Shown here in pieces: positions 8,241 to 49,542 of a stretch of 64,000 nt of DNA; the stretch's first letter is position 1, and every line of letters starts with the position of its first letter. The DNA comes from Candidatus Uhrbacteria bacterium (GTDB lineage: Bacteria; Patescibacteriota; Patescibacteriia; UBA9934; GWF2-40-263): assembly GCA_016188495.1 (NCBI GenBank), contig JACPHU010000029.1, positions 11,136 through 75,135 on the forward strand, in the 5' to 3' direction. A program made the translations under genes and the position numbers. The notes beneath the pieces were generated by a model. The model worked only from the letters and a program-made list of their open reading frames with translations, was not told the DNA's origin and made no database searches.

Positions 8241-9134
8241 TTACGTCGCGCTAAAAAAAATTTTTCGGTTTCCATGTTCCCATTCAGTTCCTTTTAGAAG
8301 AGCGACACCCTCTTCAAGACTAAAGGTTTTGCCCAGAATATCGTCTACCTTGAGTTTCTTATTGGTTAACAAGGCAAGTGATTCTTTGAACGAACCATAG
8401 TTTGTGCCGCACAGAGTGAGATCTTTTTTCACCACAGTCGCCACAACCAATGGAGCGGGAGTATATTGGCGACTCTTGAGCACGATTGTTCCTTTTGGTT
8501 TAACAATGCGCACCATTTCATTGAGAATCTCATTGTTTATAAAAGTTTCAATGGCAAAATCACAAGAATCGTTTTTAATGGTTTGAAGACGTTCTGGCGT
8601 GATCATCCTGACAGACGTGAAACCGTAAAGACGCATAATTCGAAGTGTGAGAGTGGCGATGCGGCTTGTTCCAATAATGATGCCTCTTTGTTTCTTTTGA
8701 ATCGGTGCCTGTAATACTGCGAGGGAGGCAGCAACAGGTTCGGCATATGCAGCTTTTCGAAAATCCATTTTTTTAGGAATTTTAAAAACGAGTTGTGCCG
8801 GGACGCAGACAAATTCCGCAAAAGCCCCGTGAACGTTTATTCCTAACATGTCTCCAATGTAGTTTCCGTCTTTGTCTGGCATGATGGGCATGACGGCTAC
8901 ACGGTCACCAAGCTTAAATTGAAGAACGTTGCGACCGAGTTTTTCGATCGTGCCGGAAAATTCGTGACCAAGAATGGTTCCATCTTTTACTTTGATTTTT
9001 CCTGTTGCCGCGTAAATGTCTGTTCGACACAATCCCGTCAGTTGTATCTTAATGAGAACTTCATTTGCTTTTGGTTGTGGAATAGCTATCTCTGCGAGGG
9101 TGATTCCTTCAGGTGTTTTGATAATGGCTTTCAT
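8241..9134 (-). CDS. zinc-binding alcohol dehydrogenase (MDR superfamily)
   Basis: GLCRTD...GHEFSGTI catalytic-Zn signature and Rossmann GxGxxG-like segment. First gene of the 4-gene minus-strand operon. Confidence 0.75.
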   Translation of the reverse strand: MKAIIKTPEGITLAEIAIPQPKANEVLIKIQLTGLCRTDIYAATGKIKVKDGTILGHEFSGTIEKLGRNVLQFKLGDRVAVMPIMPDKDGNYIGDMLGINVHGAFAEFVCVPAQLVFKIPKKMDFRKAAYAEPVAASLAVLQAPIQKKQRGIIIGTSRIATLTLRIMRLYGFTSVRMITPERLQTIKNDSCDFAIETFINNEILNEMVRIVKPKGTIVLKSRQYTPAPLVVATVVKKDLTLCGTNYGSFKESLALLTNKKLKVDDILGKTFSLEEGVALLKGTEWEHGNRKIFFSAT

Positions 9135-33059: not shown

Positions 33060-34379
33060 ATGAACGATCTCAACATTATTCATGTCCCCGTCGTGGATCT
33101 CAAACCCGCGGAGTACAATCCGCGTAAGCATTCGCAGGAGCAGATGACCCAACTACAGGAATCCATTAAACGTTTTGGGTTGGTAGATCCGATTATTTGT
33201 AACAACGCTTCCGAGCGCAGCAACATCGTCATTGGCGGCCACTTTCGTTTGGAGGCTGCTAAAGCTCTTGGCTATACAACAATTCCGGTCGTGTACGTTC
33301 ATATCCCCGAGATTGAAAAGGAAAAGGAACTCAATGTCCGGCTCAACAAAAACACAGGGGAGTTTGATCTGGACCTGCTCGCCCAGTTTGATGAGTCATT
33401 TCTGCAAGACATAGGTTTTGATTCAGAAGAACTTGATGACATCTTTCCAGCCGAGGAGAACCCGGAAGTCTTTGATCTAAAAAAAGAACTCGAGAAGCTC
33501 AACATTAGTGAAGTCACTGTGCAAAAAGGAGATGTCTATGAACTGGATGGATCCAGGCTTATGTGCGGCGACTCCACGATAGAAGAAGACATGCTCAAAC
33601 TGCTTGGTGAACACCAGGCTGATATGTGCCTCACGGATCCGCCATACATCCTCGATTACCTCAAAGGAAAAAAGAAGAACGGTGAACCTACTGAAGGATT
33701 TGGGTATAAAAGGGATCGTAAGTATCTGGAGACGGATGTTCTTCCACCAGATTTCACAGAGAAATGGATGGACAACGTCGCGAAAGTTGCTAAACCTGAC
33801 TTCTCTATTATCTGCTATGAAAATTGGAAAAATCTGCGGGTCATTTGGGGTGAAATGGAAAAACATTGGAAGGTAAAAAATATGATCGTCTGGCATCTCC
33901 CTAATCGTCATCAAGGATATTCGGCGAAAAATAAGTTTTTCAACAAGCATGATATTGCTGTGGTCGGTGCTTCGGGTGACATTCCCTACAACATCGATGA
34001 GGAAGAGCAACCGTTGCAAGAGGAGTACGAAACAGCACTCTTTGCCACAGAAGGTAAACCGCATTGGGAAACGTACGAGAAAGGGAAAAAAGATTGTCCG
34101 ACAGATTTCATTGAGTTTATGGCTTCAGACGAGAAACATTCCGGCCAAGGGGTGGTATTTGGCACCAAGCCAATCGACATCCTTATTCCGTACATCAAAG
34201 TCCTTACCAAACGCGACAGTCTGATCCTTGAACCCTTCGGCGGATCTGGATCAACACTCATCGCCGCTGTCCATATGAAACGCCGATGTTTCCTCATGGA
34301 AAAGTGTCCGACCTATGCTCAAGTTATTCTCCAAAGATGGGAAAAACAAACCGGGCAAAAGCCTTTTAAAATTACATGA
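33060..34379 (+). CDS. ParB-like nuclease domain fused to beta-class N6A/N4C DNA methyltransferase
   Basis: ParB N-terminal region (IICNN...GGHFRLEAAKALG). Motif IV CLTDPPYIL precedes motif I EPFGGSGSTLIAA. Confidence 0.8.
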   Translation: MNDLNIIHVPVVDLKPAEYNPRKHSQEQMTQLQESIKRFGLVDPIICNNASERSNIVIGGHFRLEAAKALGYTTIPVVYVHIPEIEKEKELNVRLNKNTGEFDLDLLAQFDESFLQDIGFDSEELDDIFPAEENPEVFDLKKELEKLNISEVTVQKGDVYELDGSRLMCGDSTIEEDMLKLLGEHQADMCLTDPPYILDYLKGKKKNGEPTEGFGYKRDRKYLETDVLPPDFTEKWMDNVAKVAKPDFSIICYENWKNLRVIWGEMEKHWKVKNMIVWHLPNRHQGYSAKNKFFNKHDIAVVGASGDIPYNIDEEEQPLQEEYETALFATEGKPHWETYEKGKKDCPTDFIEFMASDEKHSGQGVVFGTKPIDILIPYIKVLTKRDSLILEPFGGSGSTLIAAVHMKRRCFLMEKCPTYAQVILQRWEKQTGQKPFKIT

Positions 34380-39393: not shown

Positions 39394-41433
39394 ATGACAA
39401 ACAACTTTCGAGAAAAAGCACAGCTCATCTGGAACATTGCCGACGTCCTACGTGGAAGTTGGAAACAACACGAGTATCAAGACGTTATTCTCCCGCTTGT
39501 GGTTGTGAAGCGACTGGATTCTATTTTGGCACCAACGAAACCCAAGGTGCTTCAGCAGTACAACGAACTGAAATCTAAGATCGATATTGATCCTGTGTTG
39601 AAATCAACATCGAAAGTCGGATTTTATAACGTATCCGAGTACGACTTTGAAAAGCTCCTCGAAGACCCGGATCATATTTCAGGAAACTTCAAGCATTATC
39701 TAAATGGGTTCAGTGAGAACATTCAGGACATTGTCGAAAAGTTTGAATTTGACCGCCAGCTCTCGAGACTTGAAGGAGGTAACCTTCTCTATCTCATCAT
39801 TAAAGAGCTTAATAAAGTGGATCTGCACCCAGATGTTGTCGATAACCATGAGATGGGATCGATCTTCGAAGAGCTGATTCGCCGATTCTCTGAGCAGTCC
39901 AACGAAACAGCTGGTGAGCATTATTCTCCGCGTGATGTTGTAAGACTTGCGGTAGAGATCCTGCTTGCACCGGACAAGGCACGTTTGGAAAAAGAACACA
40001 TCATTAAAACAGTTTACGATTGCGCGTGTGGTACAGGTGGAATGTTGTCTATTGCGAAAGAATATATTCAAAAAGAAGTGAATGATAAGGCAAACATCTA
40101 TTTGTATGGCCAGGAGCTCAACCCGGTCACATACGCCATGTGCAAGTCTGACATGCTAATTAAGGGCGAGAACCCAGACAACATTAAGGGCGGAGAAAAA
40201 GACCATTCACTTGCCAGCACGCTTTCCAACGATCAATTTTTTGGCACGCACTTCGACTACATGTTGACGAACCCACCTTTTGGAGTGGACTGGAAGAAGG
40301 ATATGGACGTGGTAGAGCGCGAAGCTGAACGCGGATACGCAGGGCGTTTTGGTGCAGGACTTCCACGGTCTTCTGATGGTCAGCTTCTCTTCCTACAGCA
40401 TCTTCTTTCAAAAATGCGACCCGAGAGCGAAGGCGGATCCCGTATTGGAATTGTCTTTAACGGGTCTCCTCTCTTTACAGGAAATGCTGGACAAGGTGAA
40501 AGCGAAATCCGTCGCTGGATTCTGGAACATGATTGGCTTGAAGCTATTGTCGCGCTTCCTGATCAACTCTTTTTCAACACTGGAATTCCAACTTACCTTT
40601 GGTTTATAACCAATCGAAAGTCAGATGAACGCAAAGACAAAGTCCAAATCATCGACGCGCGTGCATTCTCTGAGAAGATGCGAAAGAGTCTTGGCAACAA
40701 ACGCAACTTCATCACGGAAGAATTTAGAAAAAAGGTTTTAGAGGTTTACGCAGATTTCAGTGAAAACGAATACTCGAAGATCTTTAGCAATGAAGAGTTT
40801 GGGTACCGACAAATAACCGTTGAGCGTCCACTAAAGCTCAATTTTCAGGTATCACCGGAGCGGATCGCGGCACTTAAAGAGGAGTCAACATTCCAGAAAT
40901 TAGCAACATCCAAAAAGAAAGGAGAGAAAGGAAAAGAAGAGATTGAAGCCGGGCTGAAGCTTCAACAGCAGGTCATCACAACATTCAATGAAATGCCGAG
41001 TGAATTGTTTAAGAATGGAAATGAATTCGTGAAACTCCTTGAGGGGGTTTGGAAGAATAACGATCTCAAGCTACCTGCTCCACTGAAAAAAGTAGTGATA
41101 GATGCCTTATCTGAACAGGATGAATCCGCCAACGTATTTTTAGACAGCAAAGGTAAACAGCAAGCAGACACGAATTTGCGCGACACAGAAAACGTGCCGT
41201 TGAATCAGGATGTTTACGACTACTTTGCAAAAGAGGTAAAGCCCTATGTTCCTGATGCATGGATTGATGAAAGTAAGACAGACCACAAAGATAACAAGGT
41301 TGGAAAAGTTGGCTATGAAATTCTCGTCACTCGATTCTTCTACAAGTACGAGGCACCACGGTCACTGGATCAGATTCAGAAGGATATTGAGCAGGTTGAG
41401 AGTGAGTTAGATTCACTGATTAAGCAGATGTAG
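39394..41433 (+). CDS. hsdM: Type I restriction-modification N6-adenine methyltransferase subunit
   Basis: N-terminal HsdM domain (LWNIADVLRG). Motif IV LTNPPFGVDW. 679 aa. Confidence 0.9.
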   Translation: MTNNFREKAQLIWNIADVLRGSWKQHEYQDVILPLVVVKRLDSILAPTKPKVLQQYNELKSKIDIDPVLKSTSKVGFYNVSEYDFEKLLEDPDHISGNFKHYLNGFSENIQDIVEKFEFDRQLSRLEGGNLLYLIIKELNKVDLHPDVVDNHEMGSIFEELIRRFSEQSNETAGEHYSPRDVVRLAVEILLAPDKARLEKEHIIKTVYDCACGTGGMLSIAKEYIQKEVNDKANIYLYGQELNPVTYAMCKSDMLIKGENPDNIKGGEKDHSLASTLSNDQFFGTHFDYMLTNPPFGVDWKKDMDVVEREAERGYAGRFGAGLPRSSDGQLLFLQHLLSKMRPESEGGSRIGIVFNGSPLFTGNAGQGESEIRRWILEHDWLEAIVALPDQLFFNTGIPTYLWFITNRKSDERKDKVQIIDARAFSEKMRKSLGNKRNFITEEFRKKVLEVYADFSENEYSKIFSNEEFGYRQITVERPLKLNFQVSPERIAALKEESTFQKLATSKKKGEKGKEEIEAGLKLQQQVITTFNEMPSELFKNGNEFVKLLEGVWKNNDLKLPAPLKKVVIDALSEQDESANVFLDSKGKQQADTNLRDTENVPLNQDVYDYFAKEVKPYVPDAWIDESKTDHKDNKVGKVGYEILVTRFFYKYEAPRSLDQIQKDIEQVESELDSLIKQM

Positions 41434-41435
41434 AT

Positions 41436-42272
41436 ATGAATCGTGAACAAGAACAAAAGGCTAAAGAAGTCATGGGGCACGAAGACGTGTTTAGTGCTCT
41501 TGTTGAGATTTGTAAAAATCGTGAAACAGAATCGGTCGGAAATTATGGATATGAAATCTACATTCCACGAGTTATAGATAAATGGTGTCTAGCAAACATG
41601 GAGCAACTGGGAATCACAAGATGTGATTCAAATGAAACTGAGAAATGGAAAGAGCCTTTGTCTCCATACTTCTACAACGCTGCTTGGGAGCTTTGTCGAT
41701 TGGGTGTCCTTCGACCAGGTGTAACACATCACCATGCACAAGCTACCGATGACGGAAACGCAGGTAATGGATATTCTGTTACGCCATTTGGCGAACAATG
41801 GCTTCAGGAGTCAGGACCAGAATACGTTCCGACAGAACCGGGTCGTTTCGCTACACTTCTTGAACCGTTTGCAAAAGCATTTGGTCCTGGATTTCACGAA
41901 CGAGCCCAACAAGCTATTCGTTGTTACAACGCCCATGCGTATCTTGCCGCCTGTGTTATGTGCGGAGCGGCTGCAGAGTCTATTCTGCTTCAACTCGCCA
42001 TTACGAAGAATGGTGACGAGGGTGCAACACTCAACCTTTATCGTCGATCTGATGGAAGAAAGAAGATCGAGGATTTGATCATTGGCCAGCAGAAGGGTGG
42101 TGTAAAAGCTGACTTCGAAGTGTGCTTCGCTCTTCTGAAGTATTGGCGTGACGAAAGTGCGCATGGTCGAAGGTCTGAAATTGGTGAGGCGGAAGCATTC
42201 ACGTCGCTTGCATTGTTATTGAGAGCCGCACAGTTCGCTCACGATAATTTTCAGATGTTAACGGCTAAATGA
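41436..42272 (+). CDS. HEPN-like (DUF4145-type) protein inserted between hsdM and hsdS
   Basis: C-terminal helical domain ending in KYWRDESAHG (Rx4H HEPN motif). 3-nt gap upstream and 4-nt overlap downstream. Confidence 0.4.
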   Translation: MNREQEQKAKEVMGHEDVFSALVEICKNRETESVGNYGYEIYIPRVIDKWCLANMEQLGITRCDSNETEKWKEPLSPYFYNAAWELCRLGVLRPGVTHHHAQATDDGNAGNGYSVTPFGEQWLQESGPEYVPTEPGRFATLLEPFAKAFGPGFHERAQQAIRCYNAHAYLAACVMCGAAAESILLQLAITKNGDEGATLNLYRRSDGRKKIEDLIIGQQKGGVKADFEVCFALLKYWRDESAHGRRSEIGEAEAFTSLALLLRAAQFAHDNFQMLTAK

Positions 42273-43603
42273 ATATGAAATACGCATTACGAGACAAAAA
42301 AGAGATGAAAGATACAGACCTCACGGGCATCAATTGGATCCCGCGTGGCTGGTCGGTCTTGAAACTAAAACAGTTGACCGATCGACCCTTCCAATATGGT
42401 CTAAACGAATCGGCTATTGATAATGTAGACGGGGATCCCCGCTACATCAGAATTACAGACATCACAACCAGCGGATCGCTTAGAAAAGATACTGTTAAAA
42501 CAATGTCTTCTGAAAAAGCTCGTGGATATATTTTGCAGGATGGCGATTTATTGTTCGCCCGCTCAGGAGCCACGGCAGGAAAACCTTTCATGTATCGTGA
42601 ATTCGACGGTGTAAGTTGTTTTGCGGGATACTTGATTCGCTTCGTCCCGAATAAAGACAAACTATTTCCCCGTTTCCTAGATTTTGTGTCACAGTCTGCT
42701 TATTACGAGAGCTGGAAAAATAGCATTTTTATTCAGGCGACCATTCAAAACATTAGTGCGGACAAGTATAAAGAATTTCTAATTCCCATTCCTTCAACCG
42801 ACGACCAAAAACGTATTGCTGACTTCCTCGATGAAAAAACGGTGGTGATTGATGAGGTGGTGAAGAAGAAAAAGAAGCAGATTGAACTACTAAAAGAAAA
42901 ACGCGATGCACTTATTACTCAGGCTGTGACGAAGGGTCTTAATTCGAATGTGAAGATGAAAGATTCGGGTGTTGAGTGGATTGGCGAGATTCCAGAGGGG
43001 TGGAATTTAGTTAGACTTCGTAGAGTTGTTTCACTAAATCCTTCAAAGCAAGAGTCTAAACATATTTCAGAAGATAGTGACGTTACATTTCTGCCGATGA
43101 CAAAGGTATCTTCTAAAGGCACATTCGATAAAGAAGTTGTTTCAAAAAAGAATGATGTTGCGACTGGTTTCACCTATTTTCGTAACGGTGATGTTATTAC
43201 TGCCAAGATCACGCCTTGTTTTGAAAACGGAAAAGGAGCGTTGGTAAATGATTTAGTAAATGGCATTGGTTTTGGATCGACTGAATTCACTGTTATTCGG
43301 CCAAGCTCTTCAATTAATGGTACGTATCTGTACTACCTAGTGCATTCAGAGATGTTTAGAAAATCTGGTGGGCCGTGGATGTATGGTTCCGCTGGACAAC
43401 AACGCGTGCCCGACAGGTTCATTAAAGAGTTTCAAGCACCGCTACCATCGATTGAGGAACAGGAGAAAATTGTAATGCAACTGGATAGAGGGCTGAACTT
43501 ACTAGACAGATCAATAAAAACGATTCAAAAATCAATAAAACTAATTCAAGAATACCGTTCGTCGCTCATCTCACATGTGGTGACTGGGAAGATTGTTGTA
43601 TGA
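42269..43603 (+). CDS. hsdS: Type I restriction-modification specificity subunit
   Basis: Two target-recognition domains separated by the conserved central coiled-coil EFLIPIPSTDDQKRIADFLDEKT and a C-terminal repeat of it. Confidence 0.85.
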   Translation: MNMKYALRDKKEMKDTDLTGINWIPRGWSVLKLKQLTDRPFQYGLNESAIDNVDGDPRYIRITDITTSGSLRKDTVKTMSSEKARGYILQDGDLLFARSGATAGKPFMYREFDGVSCFAGYLIRFVPNKDKLFPRFLDFVSQSAYYESWKNSIFIQATIQNISADKYKEFLIPIPSTDDQKRIADFLDEKTVVIDEVVKKKKKQIELLKEKRDALITQAVTKGLNSNVKMKDSGVEWIGEIPEGWNLVRLRRVVSLNPSKQESKHISEDSDVTFLPMTKVSSKGTFDKEVVSKKNDVATGFTYFRNGDVITAKITPCFENGKGALVNDLVNGIGFGSTEFTVIRPSSSINGTYLYYLVHSEMFRKSGGPWMYGSAGQQRVPDRFIKEFQAPLPSIEEQEKIVMQLDRGLNLLDRSIKTIQKSIKLIQEYRSSLISHVVTGKIVV

Positions 43604-44427
43604 AGAACTTTCTTGAAACATATCCTTTGTACAAATGGATTGAATTCCAAGCAACCGAGGATCACGAAAAGTATAAAGATGTAAAAGTCCATCCCCCTGC
43701 AGTCAATTTAGATTGTTCTATATGTGAATCAAAGCAAACATATCGAGTTTATGAAGATGGATCGCTAGCTAATTTTGGTGGACATCACGATAACAACATT
43801 TATCGTCTTGAATATGTTTGCGCAGGATGCAAATCTGCAAATATAGAGTTTTTACTTTTCGTCCATCGGAGTAACGGCCACGATGCAAAGAGCAAGAAAT
43901 ATCTCTACAAAATGAAAATTCAAAAAATTGGTCAGTTTCCTGCTTGGTCCATTAATCCAGACCCGGGGATATCCAAATTGTTAGGTGAGCATGTAGATAC
44001 GTATAAAAAGGGGTTGGTTTGCGAATCTCAAGGTTACGGTATAGGGGCATTTGCGTATTACCGAAGGATCGTCGAAGATAACGTCGAGTCGTTACTGAAT
44101 CAAATCAAAGAATTAGTCGAGGATGAAACTGATGTAGTAAAAGGCATTGAAGAAGTGAAGGCTGAACATAATACAGAGCAAAGAATCAGGATTGCATCGA
44201 CCGTACTTCCAGAGTCGCTACAAGTGGCCGGGAACAATCCTCTTTCGGTAATTTATAGTGCTTTGAGTGAAGGGTTACACGTACAAGATGATGAGACCTG
44301 TCTAAATTTGGCGCACAATATCCGTGAAGCGCTGACATATTTAGTGCATCAAATTAATCTACAAACACAAGGTAAAAGACAATTTACGGAGAGTTTAAAA
44401 CAGATTGTAATCGCTAAAACTAAATAG
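43600..44427 (+). CDS. hypothetical Zn-ribbon protein embedded in the Type I R-M operon
   Basis: CSIC...CAGC Zn-ribbon then about 170-aa helical domain. Translationally coupled (4-nt overlap with hsdS). Confidence 0.45.
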   Translation: MKNFLETYPLYKWIEFQATEDHEKYKDVKVHPPAVNLDCSICESKQTYRVYEDGSLANFGGHHDNNIYRLEYVCAGCKSANIEFLLFVHRSNGHDAKSKKYLYKMKIQKIGQFPAWSINPDPGISKLLGEHVDTYKKGLVCESQGYGIGAFAYYRRIVEDNVESLLNQIKELVEDETDVVKGIEEVKAEHNTEQRIRIASTVLPESLQVAGNNPLSVIYSALSEGLHVQDDETCLNLAHNIREALTYLVHQINLQTQGKRQFTESLKQIVIAKTK

Positions 44428-44428
44428 T

Positions 44429-44689
44429 ATGCCATTGCCAGATAATTATAAAGATCTAATTCTTGAGAAACTCAAGGAAAAAGGTGCGATACCTCTGTGT
44501 GAGATTTGTCAGCACAATGACTGGGCAGTTGTGGATCAGGCTATTAGTGCACCAATTTCAGATTTGACTGGAGGAATGAGGATCCCGCAACCGCAGATCC
44601 CTTGTGCTGGTCTCATTTGCAACAACTGCGGAAATTTAAGACTTTTCGCTCTTGGTGCGTTGGGTATTGATGTTAATCCGAAAAAGTAG
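44429..44689 (+). CDS. small Zn-ribbon protein (86 aa)
   Basis: CEIC...CNNCG. Starts 2 nt after the previous stop. Confidence 0.4.
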   Translation: MPLPDNYKDLILEKLKEKGAIPLCEICQHNDWAVVDQAISAPISDLTGGMRIPQPQIPCAGLICNNCGNLRLFALGALGIDVNPKK

Positions 44690-44692
44690 GAT

Positions 44693-45106
44693 ATGCCTGA
44701 CTATATTCATCATGATCCTGATCGCATTCTCTATTCGTTATCTGAAGATGAACTGGAGAATCTTTCAAATCAAGCACAATCACTTTGGAAGGACGTATGT
44801 CTCGTATCATTTTCGGTTGGGATCCCAACTGTAATTAATGCCATTGCAGAATTAAGTAATCAAGAAACATTTCAAATAACGATAACCATTTTCTTAAATA
44901 TATTGATTGGCATCATGGGGATTGCACTTGGAATAGTTTTTGCTATTGCTTGGCACCGATCACATAAGTCAATTAAAAATGTTATGGATAATATAAAAGC
45001 GAGACCAAAGATTGAATTGAATCCTACTACCTCCAATGTTGGAGCTCTGGAGGATCTCCGAGGAGAACTCAAAAAGATTGCGAATCAGCCTGCAAGATGG
45101 GGGTAA
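44693..45106 (+). CDS. small 2-TM membrane protein (137 aa)
   Basis: Two strong hydrophobic helices (VCLVSFSVGIPTVINAIAEL; ITIFLNILIGIMGIALGIVFAIAW). Starts 4 nt after the previous stop. 10 nt before hsdR. Confidence 0.4.
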   Translation: MPDYIHHDPDRILYSLSEDELENLSNQAQSLWKDVCLVSFSVGIPTVINAIAELSNQETFQITITIFLNILIGIMGIALGIVFAIAWHRSHKSIKNVMDNIKARPKIELNPTTSNVGALEDLRGELKKIANQPARWG

Positions 45107-48207: not shown

Positions 48208-49542
48208 ATGTACGCACAAAACACGAACAACGATCCCGGCAAAGCCATACCAATCCGCTACTGCCTTTACGCGAGAAAATCGTCCGAGGATGACGAACGC
48301 CAGGCATTATCAATCGAGAGTCAGGTTAAGGAGGCACTTGAACTTGCTACGAGAGATGGCTTGAATGTTGTCGAAGTTCGCCGTGAAAGTCATTCTGCGA
48401 AAAGCTCCGGGTCACGCCCGGAGTTTAATCGTTTAATTGGGGACATTCGGGAAAAGAAATTCGACGGAATCCTAACATGGGCGGCGGATCGCATAAGTCG
48501 TAACGCCGGTGATCTTGGAACCGTTATCGATCTCATGGATCAAGGACTGCTTCGAGAAATTCTTACGCATGGCACAAAGTTCACCAACTCACCGAGCGAC
48601 AAGTTCATGCTCATGATGATGTGTGGTCAGGCAAAGCTGGAGAACGATAACAAGGGTGTGAACGTGAAGCGTGGGTTTCGGGCAAAGATCGAGATGGGTT
48701 TTCGACCAAACATGTCACCACTCGGATACCTCCACGATAAATATGCAGAAAAAGGAACATGTAAAATCTTTATGGATCCTGTTCGTGGACCAATTATCAA
48801 AGAAGTATTTCATAAAGTTGCCTACGAAGGTTGGACTGGGCGCAGCGTAAAACGCTGGCTCGATGATGAAATGAAGCTCACGACGCGCAAAGGTAAACAG
48901 GTATCGCTCAGCATGATCTACCGCATGATGGATAATTCGTTCTACACGGGTCGCTACGAGTTCCCGCAAGGAAGTGGAAAATGGTACGACGGTAAGCACG
49001 AGGCACTCATCACGAAGGATATATTTGATCGTGTGCAAGAAGTCATGAAATGCGCTCCGAAGGCGTTACCGGGAACTCACGAATTCGCCTTCACAAGAGT
49101 CTTCAAGTGCGGTGAGTGTGGATCCGGTATCAGCGCAGACCAAAAAGTGAAACGACTGAAAGACGGAACGACAAAACGATACGTCTACTATGGATGTATG
49201 AAGCGTTGGATGACAGGATGCAAACAGCCGTACATTCGCGAGGAGGAGTTGCTCGACCAGCTCTACAAAATCATCGATAAGGTAAACATCAATGAACTTG
49301 CAGCTATCGAGCGAATCAAACAAGAAATTGAGCGACTGACGAAGATGATCTCAAGCCTCGGCGGTCACATCGCGACCGCAAAAGTCGCCGAAATCATGCC
49401 GGACATCGATGTCTACGCTTGCGCGAAATACATCTTGAAAGAAGGCACCAAAGACGAGAAACGTGATCTGCTTAATCACATCAATACTGAATTGTTGATC
49501 TCTGACGGAAAGATAAGCTTCAAGGGTAAGGCTAAACGCTAA
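48208..49542 (+). CDS. large serine recombinase (resolvase/invertase catalytic domain + recombinase domain + zinc ribbon)
   Basis: YARKSSEDDERQALSIESQ with catalytic Ser, resolvase fold. CGECGSGISADQ zinc ribbon. AGGAG RBS. Confidence 0.85.
   Translation: MYAQNTNNDPGKAIPIRYCLYARKSSEDDERQALSIESQVKEALELATRDGLNVVEVRRESHSAKSSGSRPEFNRLIGDIREKKFDGILTWAADRISRNAGDLGTVIDLMDQGLLREILTHGTKFTNSPSDKFMLMMMCGQAKLENDNKGVNVKRGFRAKIEMGFRPNMSPLGYLHDKYAEKGTCKIFMDPVRGPIIKEVFHKVAYEGWTGRSVKRWLDDEMKLTTRKGKQVSLSMIYRMMDNSFYTGRYEFPQGSGKWYDGKHEALITKDIFDRVQEVMKCAPKALPGTHEFAFTRVFKCGECGSGISADQKVKRLKDGTTKRYVYYGCMKRWMTGCKQPYIREEELLDQLYKIIDKVNINELAAIERIKQEIERLTKMISSLGGHIATAKVAEIMPDIDVYACAKYILKEGTKDEKRDLLNHINTELLISDGKISFKGKAKR

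Follow-up and report, generated by a model that had tools for sequence, protein, structure and literature searches.

A two-domain HEPN-like protein as accessory cargo between hsdM and hsdS in a Type I restriction-modification operon of Candidatus Uhrbacteria

The window analysed here (a stretch of 64,000 nucleotides from contig JACPHU010000029.1 of a Candidatus Uhrbacteria bacterium) contains a Type I restriction-modification (R-M) operon in which the gene for a protein of 278 residues lies between hsdM and hsdS. This protein joins a conserved N-terminal domain to a divergent C-terminal domain; the latter very probably has the HEPN fold, and by fold and motif together the protein belongs to the HEPN superfamily. 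New in this finding are a widespread, unannotated protein family with a private N-terminal domain, and the role of its gene as one among several exchangeable cargo genes that occupy two slots in Type I operons of the Candidate Phyla Radiation (CPR). For the mechanism as a whole we lean, by a modest degree, towards a self-contained two-domain HEPN RNase of the abortive-infection type that is carried as optional cargo of the R-M operon.

The gene was found where the preliminary description had placed it (41436-42272 on the forward strand, start codon ATG), and Pfam confirmed hsdM and hsdS as its flanks. The protein itself is longer than was described: it had been taken to end at GRRSE, and 30 further residues follow that make up its last helix (residues 251-270 in the AlphaFold2 model). 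Only 2 nucleotides (nt) separate the stop codon of hsdM (TAG, 41431-41433) from the ATG of the 278-residue open reading frame (ORF), while the TGA of the latter (42270-42272) overlaps the first ATG of hsdS (42269). Promoter-like matches that could split the gene from hsdM or hsdS stayed below shuffle expectation, and there were no terminator-like sites on the forward strand within the operon; separate transcription of the gene was dropped, as no promoter or terminator signal rose above the shuffles. Because of the short gap, the overlap and the lack of internal signals, one would expect the gene to share a transcript with hsdM and hsdS and to be translationally coupled to both. Against its two operon-embedded relatives on long contigs (86-88% identity), the ratio of nonsynonymous to synonymous substitution rates (dN/dS) was 0.035-0.054, with dS saturated at 1.4-2.7: the gene is real and functional, and purifying selection has long acted on it strongly.

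Among 5.8 billion proteins searched, 1,094 homologues were found at E<=1e-3. Those listed are nearly all full length (219-290 residues, mostly >255) and mostly 50-60% identical to the query, and none carries a precomputed Pfam domain; NCBIfam, PADLOC (E<=1) and PHROGs gave zero matches to the 278-residue protein.

For the C-terminal half, the best-matching curated model was PF13643 (DUF4145), a HEPN family of Pfam clan CL0291, which aligned residues 159-253 to profile positions 2-79 of 88 at E 0.0032 and 17.9 bits, against a gathering cut-off of 23.1 bits. When 40 family members were submitted to Pfam, DUF4145 appeared in 25 (best E 2.1e-4), HEPN_MAE_28990 in 17 (best E 6e-4) and HEPN_Swt1 in two, all of them sub-threshold. 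The AlphaFold2 model, obtained from a 40-sequence alignment, had a mean predicted local distance difference test score (pLDDT) of 86.7 and is all-helical from residue 136, with helices at 144-165, 169-192, 222-243 and 251-270. Compared with the Protein Data Bank (PDB) by Foldseek, its best four matches are all HEPN proteins (1ufb, 2hsb, 1wol and 2q00; probability 0.99-1.00, template-modelling score on the target 0.61-0.70), and further HEPN proteins (4nqf, the sacsin HEPN domain, Csx1 and Csm6) stand lower in the same list. Among viral structures (BFVD), Foldseek found none with E <1. The HEPN call thus survived the comparison with HEPN and DUF4145 profiles, which gave sub-threshold DUF4145 and HEPN_MAE_28990 matches. 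Its finer assignment to the DUF4145 type did so in part: the domain is HEPN-like and nearest to DUF4145, but the family is, by its sequence, a divergent relative rather than a member by the Pfam threshold.

The motif K-Y-W-R-D-E-S-A-H-G occupies residues 235-244, with the codons of R238 at 42147-42149 and of H243 at 42162-42164. An Rx4H pattern had been read as the signature of a HEPN RNase, yet as a bare pattern it lies within chance: at least one occurs in 38% of composition-preserving shuffles of the sequence, and the protein has three (R93/H98, R162/H167 and R238/H243), besides one Rx5H at R263. The pattern by itself is no evidence for HEPN, and conservation alone singles out R238/H243, which stands above chance because it is conserved across the family. 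RxxxxH is kept in 120 of the 120 listed homologues, the trailing glycine in 119, so that the HEPN call also withstands the check on whether its Rx4H is shared by homologues. In the 236 full-length members that were aligned, W237 is present in 233, R238 in 230, D239 in 223, H243 in 227 and G244 in 218; E181 (235) and R156 (234) are likewise kept. H98 of the first pair is not conserved. The second pair is well kept in the core family (R162 in 190, C163 in 226 and H167 in 167 of the 236), and was rejected as the catalytic motif, being lost in divergent members that retain W-R-[DN]-x3-H-G. It forms part of I-R-C-Y-N-A-H (R162-H167, codons 41919-41936) and is situated where the first HEPN helix meets the second.

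The N-terminal half is conserved as strongly as the HEPN half, with invariant residues YGY (37-39), W84, R88, R93-P-G, Q102, T104, G112, T116 (kept in 236 of 236 full-length members), G119, W122 and P132-x-E-P. Pfam matched no family in this domain in any of the 40 members. A profile of the domain, run against 1.84 billion representatives, found 507 proteins, 303 of them at E<=1e-10; judged by their length, the best 150 of the 507 all appear to be this two-domain protein, whole or in part. Five long matches that were read (331-671 residues) consist of the same core followed by Ala/Pro/Ser-rich tails, and none of the eight matches of more than 300 residues has a Pfam domain. The notion of a promiscuous module that is also found on other effectors was dropped, as the inspected matches all show the same two-domain core; since they pair the domain only with this HEPN domain, it occurs, as far as those sequences go, with this HEPN domain only. 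The first 150 residues had been described as unassigned. No family name has been found for them, but they are now recognisable as a strongly conserved domain tied, in the inspected matches, to its own HEPN domain. Low-complexity C-terminal tails of 60-400 residues, rich in Ala, Pro and Ser, are seen in P0349, P0367, P0371, P0361 and P0347, and two of these tailed members have an altered motif, YWRDETSHN in one and YWGDASSHN (R to G) in the other.

Modelled separately, the N-terminal domain reached a pLDDT of 84 and a predicted template-modelling score of 0.78. Its elements follow the order helix 15-27, short strands 35-41, helix 43-53, a long helix 65-88, strand 92-94, a low-confidence loop, strand 112-115 and helix 117-125, an order that in the model possibly fits a winged helix. 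The Foldseek list against the PDB consists mostly of PadR, MarR and other winged-helix regulators, none of them significant (best E 1.3, probability <=0.23). Such a domain would suit a non-catalytic regulator that binds DNA through its N-terminal part, uses the HEPN-like part for a ligand or for oligomerisation, and controls the R-M operon or other neighbours; HEPN families without a conserved Rx4-6H do exist, as the 'No' entries in Table 1 of the HEPN survey attest (PMC3710099). R238, H243, W237 and D239 are, however, near-invariant, as expected of a catalytic motif, and the fold comparison offers no significant match to lean on. Neighbouring genes, moreover, differ in nearly every genome, so that there is no conserved target to regulate, and the gene is located inside operons, not upstream of them. 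We hold a regulator of this kind to be decidedly unlikely.

The family is mostly solo. Scanning one genome per species gave 69 loci, from Patescibacteria, Ignavibacteria, Campylobacterota, Chloroflexi, Planctomycetes, Acidobacteria, Deinococcales, Legionella, Alphaproteobacteria and others, a spread that is wide and patchy. By tblastn, no phage records with the gene were found, and two plasmid records (Pseudanabaena and Deinococcus) have it as a stand-alone gene labelled hypothetical protein. With HsdM, HsdS and HsdR of the window as queries, matches within 10 kb were present in only two of the 69 loci and were never adjacent. Clustering of the ORFs of at least 70 residues within 6 kb, over all 69 loci, gave no recurrent partner, whether antitoxin or R-M, and the candidate of a conserved partner gene was abandoned; recurrent clusters that overlap the family gene are shadow ORFs in other frames or on other strands. 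The 113 immediate neighbours belong to 97 different Pfam families, none of which is found in more than three loci, and PADLOC discerned no recurrent system among these 113. The protein had been described as a rider of Type I R-M operons: this is true of a close clade of 83-90% identity, whose members lie between hsdM and hsdS, but not of the 69 other loci, where no hsd gene is adjacent.

In one of these loci (L039, 8415-11600), the family member is placed between ubiD and ubiA on the same strand, with gaps of 41 and 1 nt; this shows that housekeeping operons, like R-M operons, can harbour the gene. HNH endonuclease genes adjoin it in three lineages, with gaps of -4 to 23 nt (L001/L071-L078, at 4771-5430 in L001; L034, at 1317-2000; L022, at 1728-2843), and the HNH protein of the first lineage bears 'homing endonuclease associated repeats'. 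This adjacency could be a link to mobility or chance. Other tightly abutting neighbours are an N6_N4 methylase (L004), a TIR-pentapeptide protein (L053) and a WYL protein (L045). Copies that are split or truncated, two adjoining ORFs matching the family, were noted in L049, L055, L059, L061, L064, L065, L066 and L057; these could reflect the decay of a toxic gene into pseudogenes, or frameshifts that arose as errors in long-read metagenome-assembled genomes (MAGs). The insertion into unrelated operons such as that of ubiD and ubiA, the neighbouring HNH genes, the patchy spread and the broken copies would all agree with a selfish toxin cassette, that is, a mobile single gene for addiction, homing or hitch-hiking that settles in operon junctions and brings no benefit to the phage defence of its host. 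We give this little credence: the gene is under strong purifying selection and has long been retained in the R-M clade, no repeats, integrase or partner antitoxin consistently travel with it, the HNH adjacency concerns only 3 of about 60 loci, and some of the split copies come from long-read MAGs and may be sequencing errors.

The hsdM-hsdS position is shared by the close relatives in L070, L084, L081 and L082. Complete hsdM-X-hsdS-...-hsdR operons are present in the first two; L081 and L082, short contigs on which the flanking genes are partial, show this order too, L082 with a called Methylase_S gene downstream and L081 with flanks that have no annotation. Where HsdM is 70-79% identical, the operons have a common frame: an upstream gene of 284-295 residues, hsdM, a first slot, hsdS, a second slot and hsdR. 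The first slot contains the 278-residue gene in the window, L070 and L084, an unrelated ORF of 120 residues in L083, and nothing in the P0396 locus or in L085, where hsdM and hsdS overlap. The second is filled differently in each: ORF275, ORF86 and ORF137 in the window; ORFs of 163, 73 and 111 residues in L070; an AAA_21/SMC-like ATPase of 516 residues in L084 (11196-12746); an ORF of 233 residues in L083 (10765-11466); a reverse transcriptase of 456 residues (RVT_1) in the P0396 locus; and a DUF6119 protein of 585 residues in L085 (10284-12041). As the slot that holds it is empty or otherwise filled in related hsd operons, the 278-residue gene is accessory cargo. The hsdS-hsdR slot is variable too, and may be worth mining for defence genes. 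In the sister operons that share the 278-residue gene, HsdS is only 34-37% identical to that of the window.

How such a protein would work can be drawn from other HEPN systems. The HEPN domain would most likely be a metal-independent RNase that uses R238 and H243, and would probably form dimers in which the active site is composite, by extension from other HEPN RNases, for which such dimers are the rule (PMC13017515). The N-terminal domain would be the likely sensor or regulatory part that keeps the RNase latent and senses the trigger. Through translational coupling the protein would be made together with the R-M enzyme, as a second line of the abortive-infection kind, in which an infection signal activates the RNase and translation is arrested in the infected cell. 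It probably acts alone and not by way of the R-M complex, since an R-M neighbour is missing in most of the family.

The closest experimental counterpart is RAZR/PD-T7-4, an abortive-infection RNase established by experiment, in which a zinc finger, as N-terminal sensor, precedes a DUF4145 HEPN domain whose R146 and H154 are essential (PMC13017515, Nature 2026). Both are single proteins with a non-catalytic N-terminal domain and a divergent C-terminal HEPN domain with a conserved R and H, and RAZR is also widespread across phyla; it offers the best experimental guide to the way in which the 278-residue protein may act. The N-terminal domain of the latter differs, however: it lacks a Cys4 pattern and a zinc-ribbon Pfam match, and neither PADLOC (E<=1) nor the PDB sequences gave a match to the protein. 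With DUF4145 in general the protein shares the helical bundle, the conserved R and H near the C-terminal end of the domain, and the known occurrence of that HEPN family 'in operon with R-M' (PMC3710099). It departs from DUF4145 in that 40 of the 40 tested members score below the gathering cut-off, in having Rx4H within W-R-D-x3-H-G where RAZR uses R146/H154, and in an N-terminal domain that is not among the listed fusions (zinc ribbon, REase, AbiJ-NTD1, DpnII-NTD and others; PMC3710099). HEPN_MAE_28990 (PF18737) is the second recurring model; its matches, too, are sub-threshold, and the 278-residue gene is not directly adjacent to a ParB-methylase gene. AbiJ-type and other Abi HEPN proteins likewise place a variable N-terminal domain before a C-terminal HEPN effector and are sometimes found in R-M operons, but the N-terminal domains of AbiJ are promiscuous, being joined to many effectors (PMC3710099), whereas the one described here was seen only with its own HEPN domain in the matches inspected; no Pfam Abi or AbiJ model matches the protein.

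PrrC and RloC are comparable in arrangement, being anticodon nucleases that are embedded in Type I R-M loci or linked to them and, in concept, a latent back-up, at the level of RNA, to DNA restriction. Both carry a large N-terminal NTPase domain (ABC or Rad50-like) that regulates a C-terminal nuclease, PrrC is obligately linked to a Type I R-M enzyme that silences it, and the gene order prrA-B-C-D places prrC between hsdS and hsdR. The preliminary description had equated the M-S junction with the slot of PrrC and RloC and is one slot off, as the 278-residue gene occupies M-S and prrC S-R. On the precedent of PrrC/EcoprrI, in which prrC is embedded in prrABD (PMC3874165), the 278-residue protein could be a latent RNase held by the HsdM/HsdS (M2S) core and freed when an anti-restriction factor of a phage attacks the R-M complex. 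The gene does lie between hsdM and hsdS and is tightly coupled to them in translation, at least three diverged operons and two short contigs (L081 and L082) preserve this arrangement, and the gene is more conserved than those of HsdM and HsdR, with dS saturated. Outside the clade of 83-90% identity, however, none of the 69 loci has an adjacent Type I gene, from which it follows that the family must be capable of latency and function in the absence of R-M. The sister operons also work with the slot empty or occupied by an unrelated gene, the operons that share the gene differ widely in HsdS, and no NTPase domain like that of PrrC or RloC is present: no ATPase family of Pfam or NCBIfam matches the protein. 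We therefore see such coupling as a minority reading, rather unlikely overall. A variant of it, to which we attach a somewhat lower probability still, is a guard analogous to PrrC but built in a completely different way: a HEPN RNase, equipped with a new N-terminal sensor domain, that is parked on the HsdM2-HsdS core and fires when anti-restriction proteins of phages strike the Type I enzyme. If true, it would explain both the position at the M-S junction and the conservation above HsdM and HsdR, and the M-S junction of CPR Type I operons would be a dedicated docking site for 'guard' effectors.

Several observations weigh against a self-contained defence RNase. No curated HEPN model passed its threshold, DUF4145 falling short of its cut-off, and the Foldseek E-values of the HEPN matches are weak (0.13-0.76). 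A search of PDB sequences with the family profile gave no HEPN protein, only a spurious DOCK10 at E ~0.5, and the search of the same sequences with the single protein gave nothing relevant. Some HEPN families are non-catalytic regulators. Elsewhere many neighbours are housekeeping genes (ubiD and ubiA in L039, for example), so that a setting in defence islands is not general; and no PADLOC, NCBIfam or PHROG model matches the protein. Finally, dN of the gene (0.07-0.10) is below that of HsdM (0.10-0.18) and HsdR (0.11-0.25) in the same operons, and its long retention and its conservation above these two would also fit a functional coupling to the R-M enzyme.

Anantharaman et al. 2013 (PMC3710099) predicted that HEPN genes carried by R-M operons serve as a back-up through suicide or dormancy, and our finding extends this concept, known since that year, rather than coming as a surprise. 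If the reading of a self-contained RNase is right, a widespread family (>1,000 homologues in many phyla) joins the single-protein HEPN defence RNases, and its new N-terminal domain becomes a candidate infection sensor. The CPR Type I operons, in Uhrbacteria and relatives, would then have two swap-in slots, M-S and S-R, for alternative Abi-like genes, a practical place to mine for defence genes in unculturable organisms. The features of the operon in the window are given in Table 1.

Table 1. Features of the Type I R-M operon in the window, with positions in the 64,000-nucleotide stretch
Feature	Positions	Strand	Remarks
Fic/SoFic-like gene, 318 aa	38435-39391	+	first gene of the operon, stops 2 nt short of the hsdM start; PADLOC SoFic E 6.3e-14; Pfam Fic E 5e-4, sub-threshold
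hsdM, Type I methyltransferase subunit, 679 aa	39394-41433	+	Pfam HsdM_N E 3.7e-22, N6_Mtase E 1.8e-60; a protein with 100% identity is recorded under Candidatus Uhrbacteria, a CPR bacterium
Gene of the two-domain 278-aa protein, cargo slot 1 (hsdM-hsdS)	41436-42272	+	conserved N-terminal domain and divergent C-terminal HEPN domain
N-terminal domain, aa 1-140	41436-41855	+	
C-terminal HEPN-like helical domain, aa ~144-278	41865-42272	+	
R238-D-E-S-A-H243 codons	42147-42164	+	candidate HEPN catalytic Rx4H within K-Y-W-R-D-x3-H-G
hsdS, specificity subunit, 444 aa	42269-43603	+	Pfam Methylase_S E 4.6e-21, two stretches
Cargo slot 2 (hsdS-hsdR)	43600-45106	+	ORF275, ORF86 and ORF137
ORF86	44429-44689	+	CxxC...CxxC, zinc ribbon-like
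ORF137	44693-45106	+	apparently hydrophobic segments; weak NCBIfam 'tandem five-TM protein' E 2.7e-6
hsdR, restriction subunit, 984 aa	45116-48070	+	Pfam HSDR_N, ResIII, SWI2_SNF2, T1R_D3-like

The genes of the second slot in the window matched no family of Pfam or PADLOC. ORF275 (43600-44427) combines a Cys4 zinc ribbon with a helical domain and matches phrog_25239 at E 1.2e-49; among its 767 homologues, one is labelled 'DUF4145 domain-containing' in UniRef. C39, C42, C74 and C77 are invariant, followed in the helical domain by Y153, R155, E159, S223, G225 and H227. Its build recalls that of RAZR (zinc ribbon plus HEPN), yet the conserved histidine has no neighbouring arginine. As a second DUF4145 protein or a paralogue of the 278-residue protein ORF275 was rejected, since none of 31 members matched DUF4145 in Pfam and hhalign against the family of the 278-residue protein gave a probability of 0.3%. 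One homologue (L088) is found directly upstream of an N6_N4 methylase and ResIII pair, another (L089/L090) beside RelA_SpoT and reverse-transcriptase genes. ORF86 and ORF137 abut ORF275, and the three may form a cassette. In the second slot of L070, the protein of 163 residues (8614-9105) includes ...ENKRNKQIAHLTYDR..., where an R-x5-H has the RN...AH character seen in HEPN families, so that this operon may, judging by sequence, have two HEPN-type genes.

At the head of the sister operons, the gene of 284-295 residues is present in L083 (6150-7004), L084 (6123-7004), L085 (6123-7004) and the P0396 locus, of which only those in L083 and L085 have a Fic match, faint or weak; a conserved unit that joins a Fic-like gene to hsdMSR is thereby suggested. 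The P0396 locus is flanked by a ParB-methylase gene (Pfam ParB_N and N6_N4_Mtase) and a serine recombinase gene (Resolvase/Recombinase). In the window, by eye and by analogy with this syntenic locus, an ORF of 439 residues at 33060-34379, about 7 kb upstream, resembles a ParB-like protein with a DNA methylase-like part, and one of 444 residues downstream of the operon (48208-49542) resembles a serine recombinase. The whole R-M region of the window may be situated on an integrative island.

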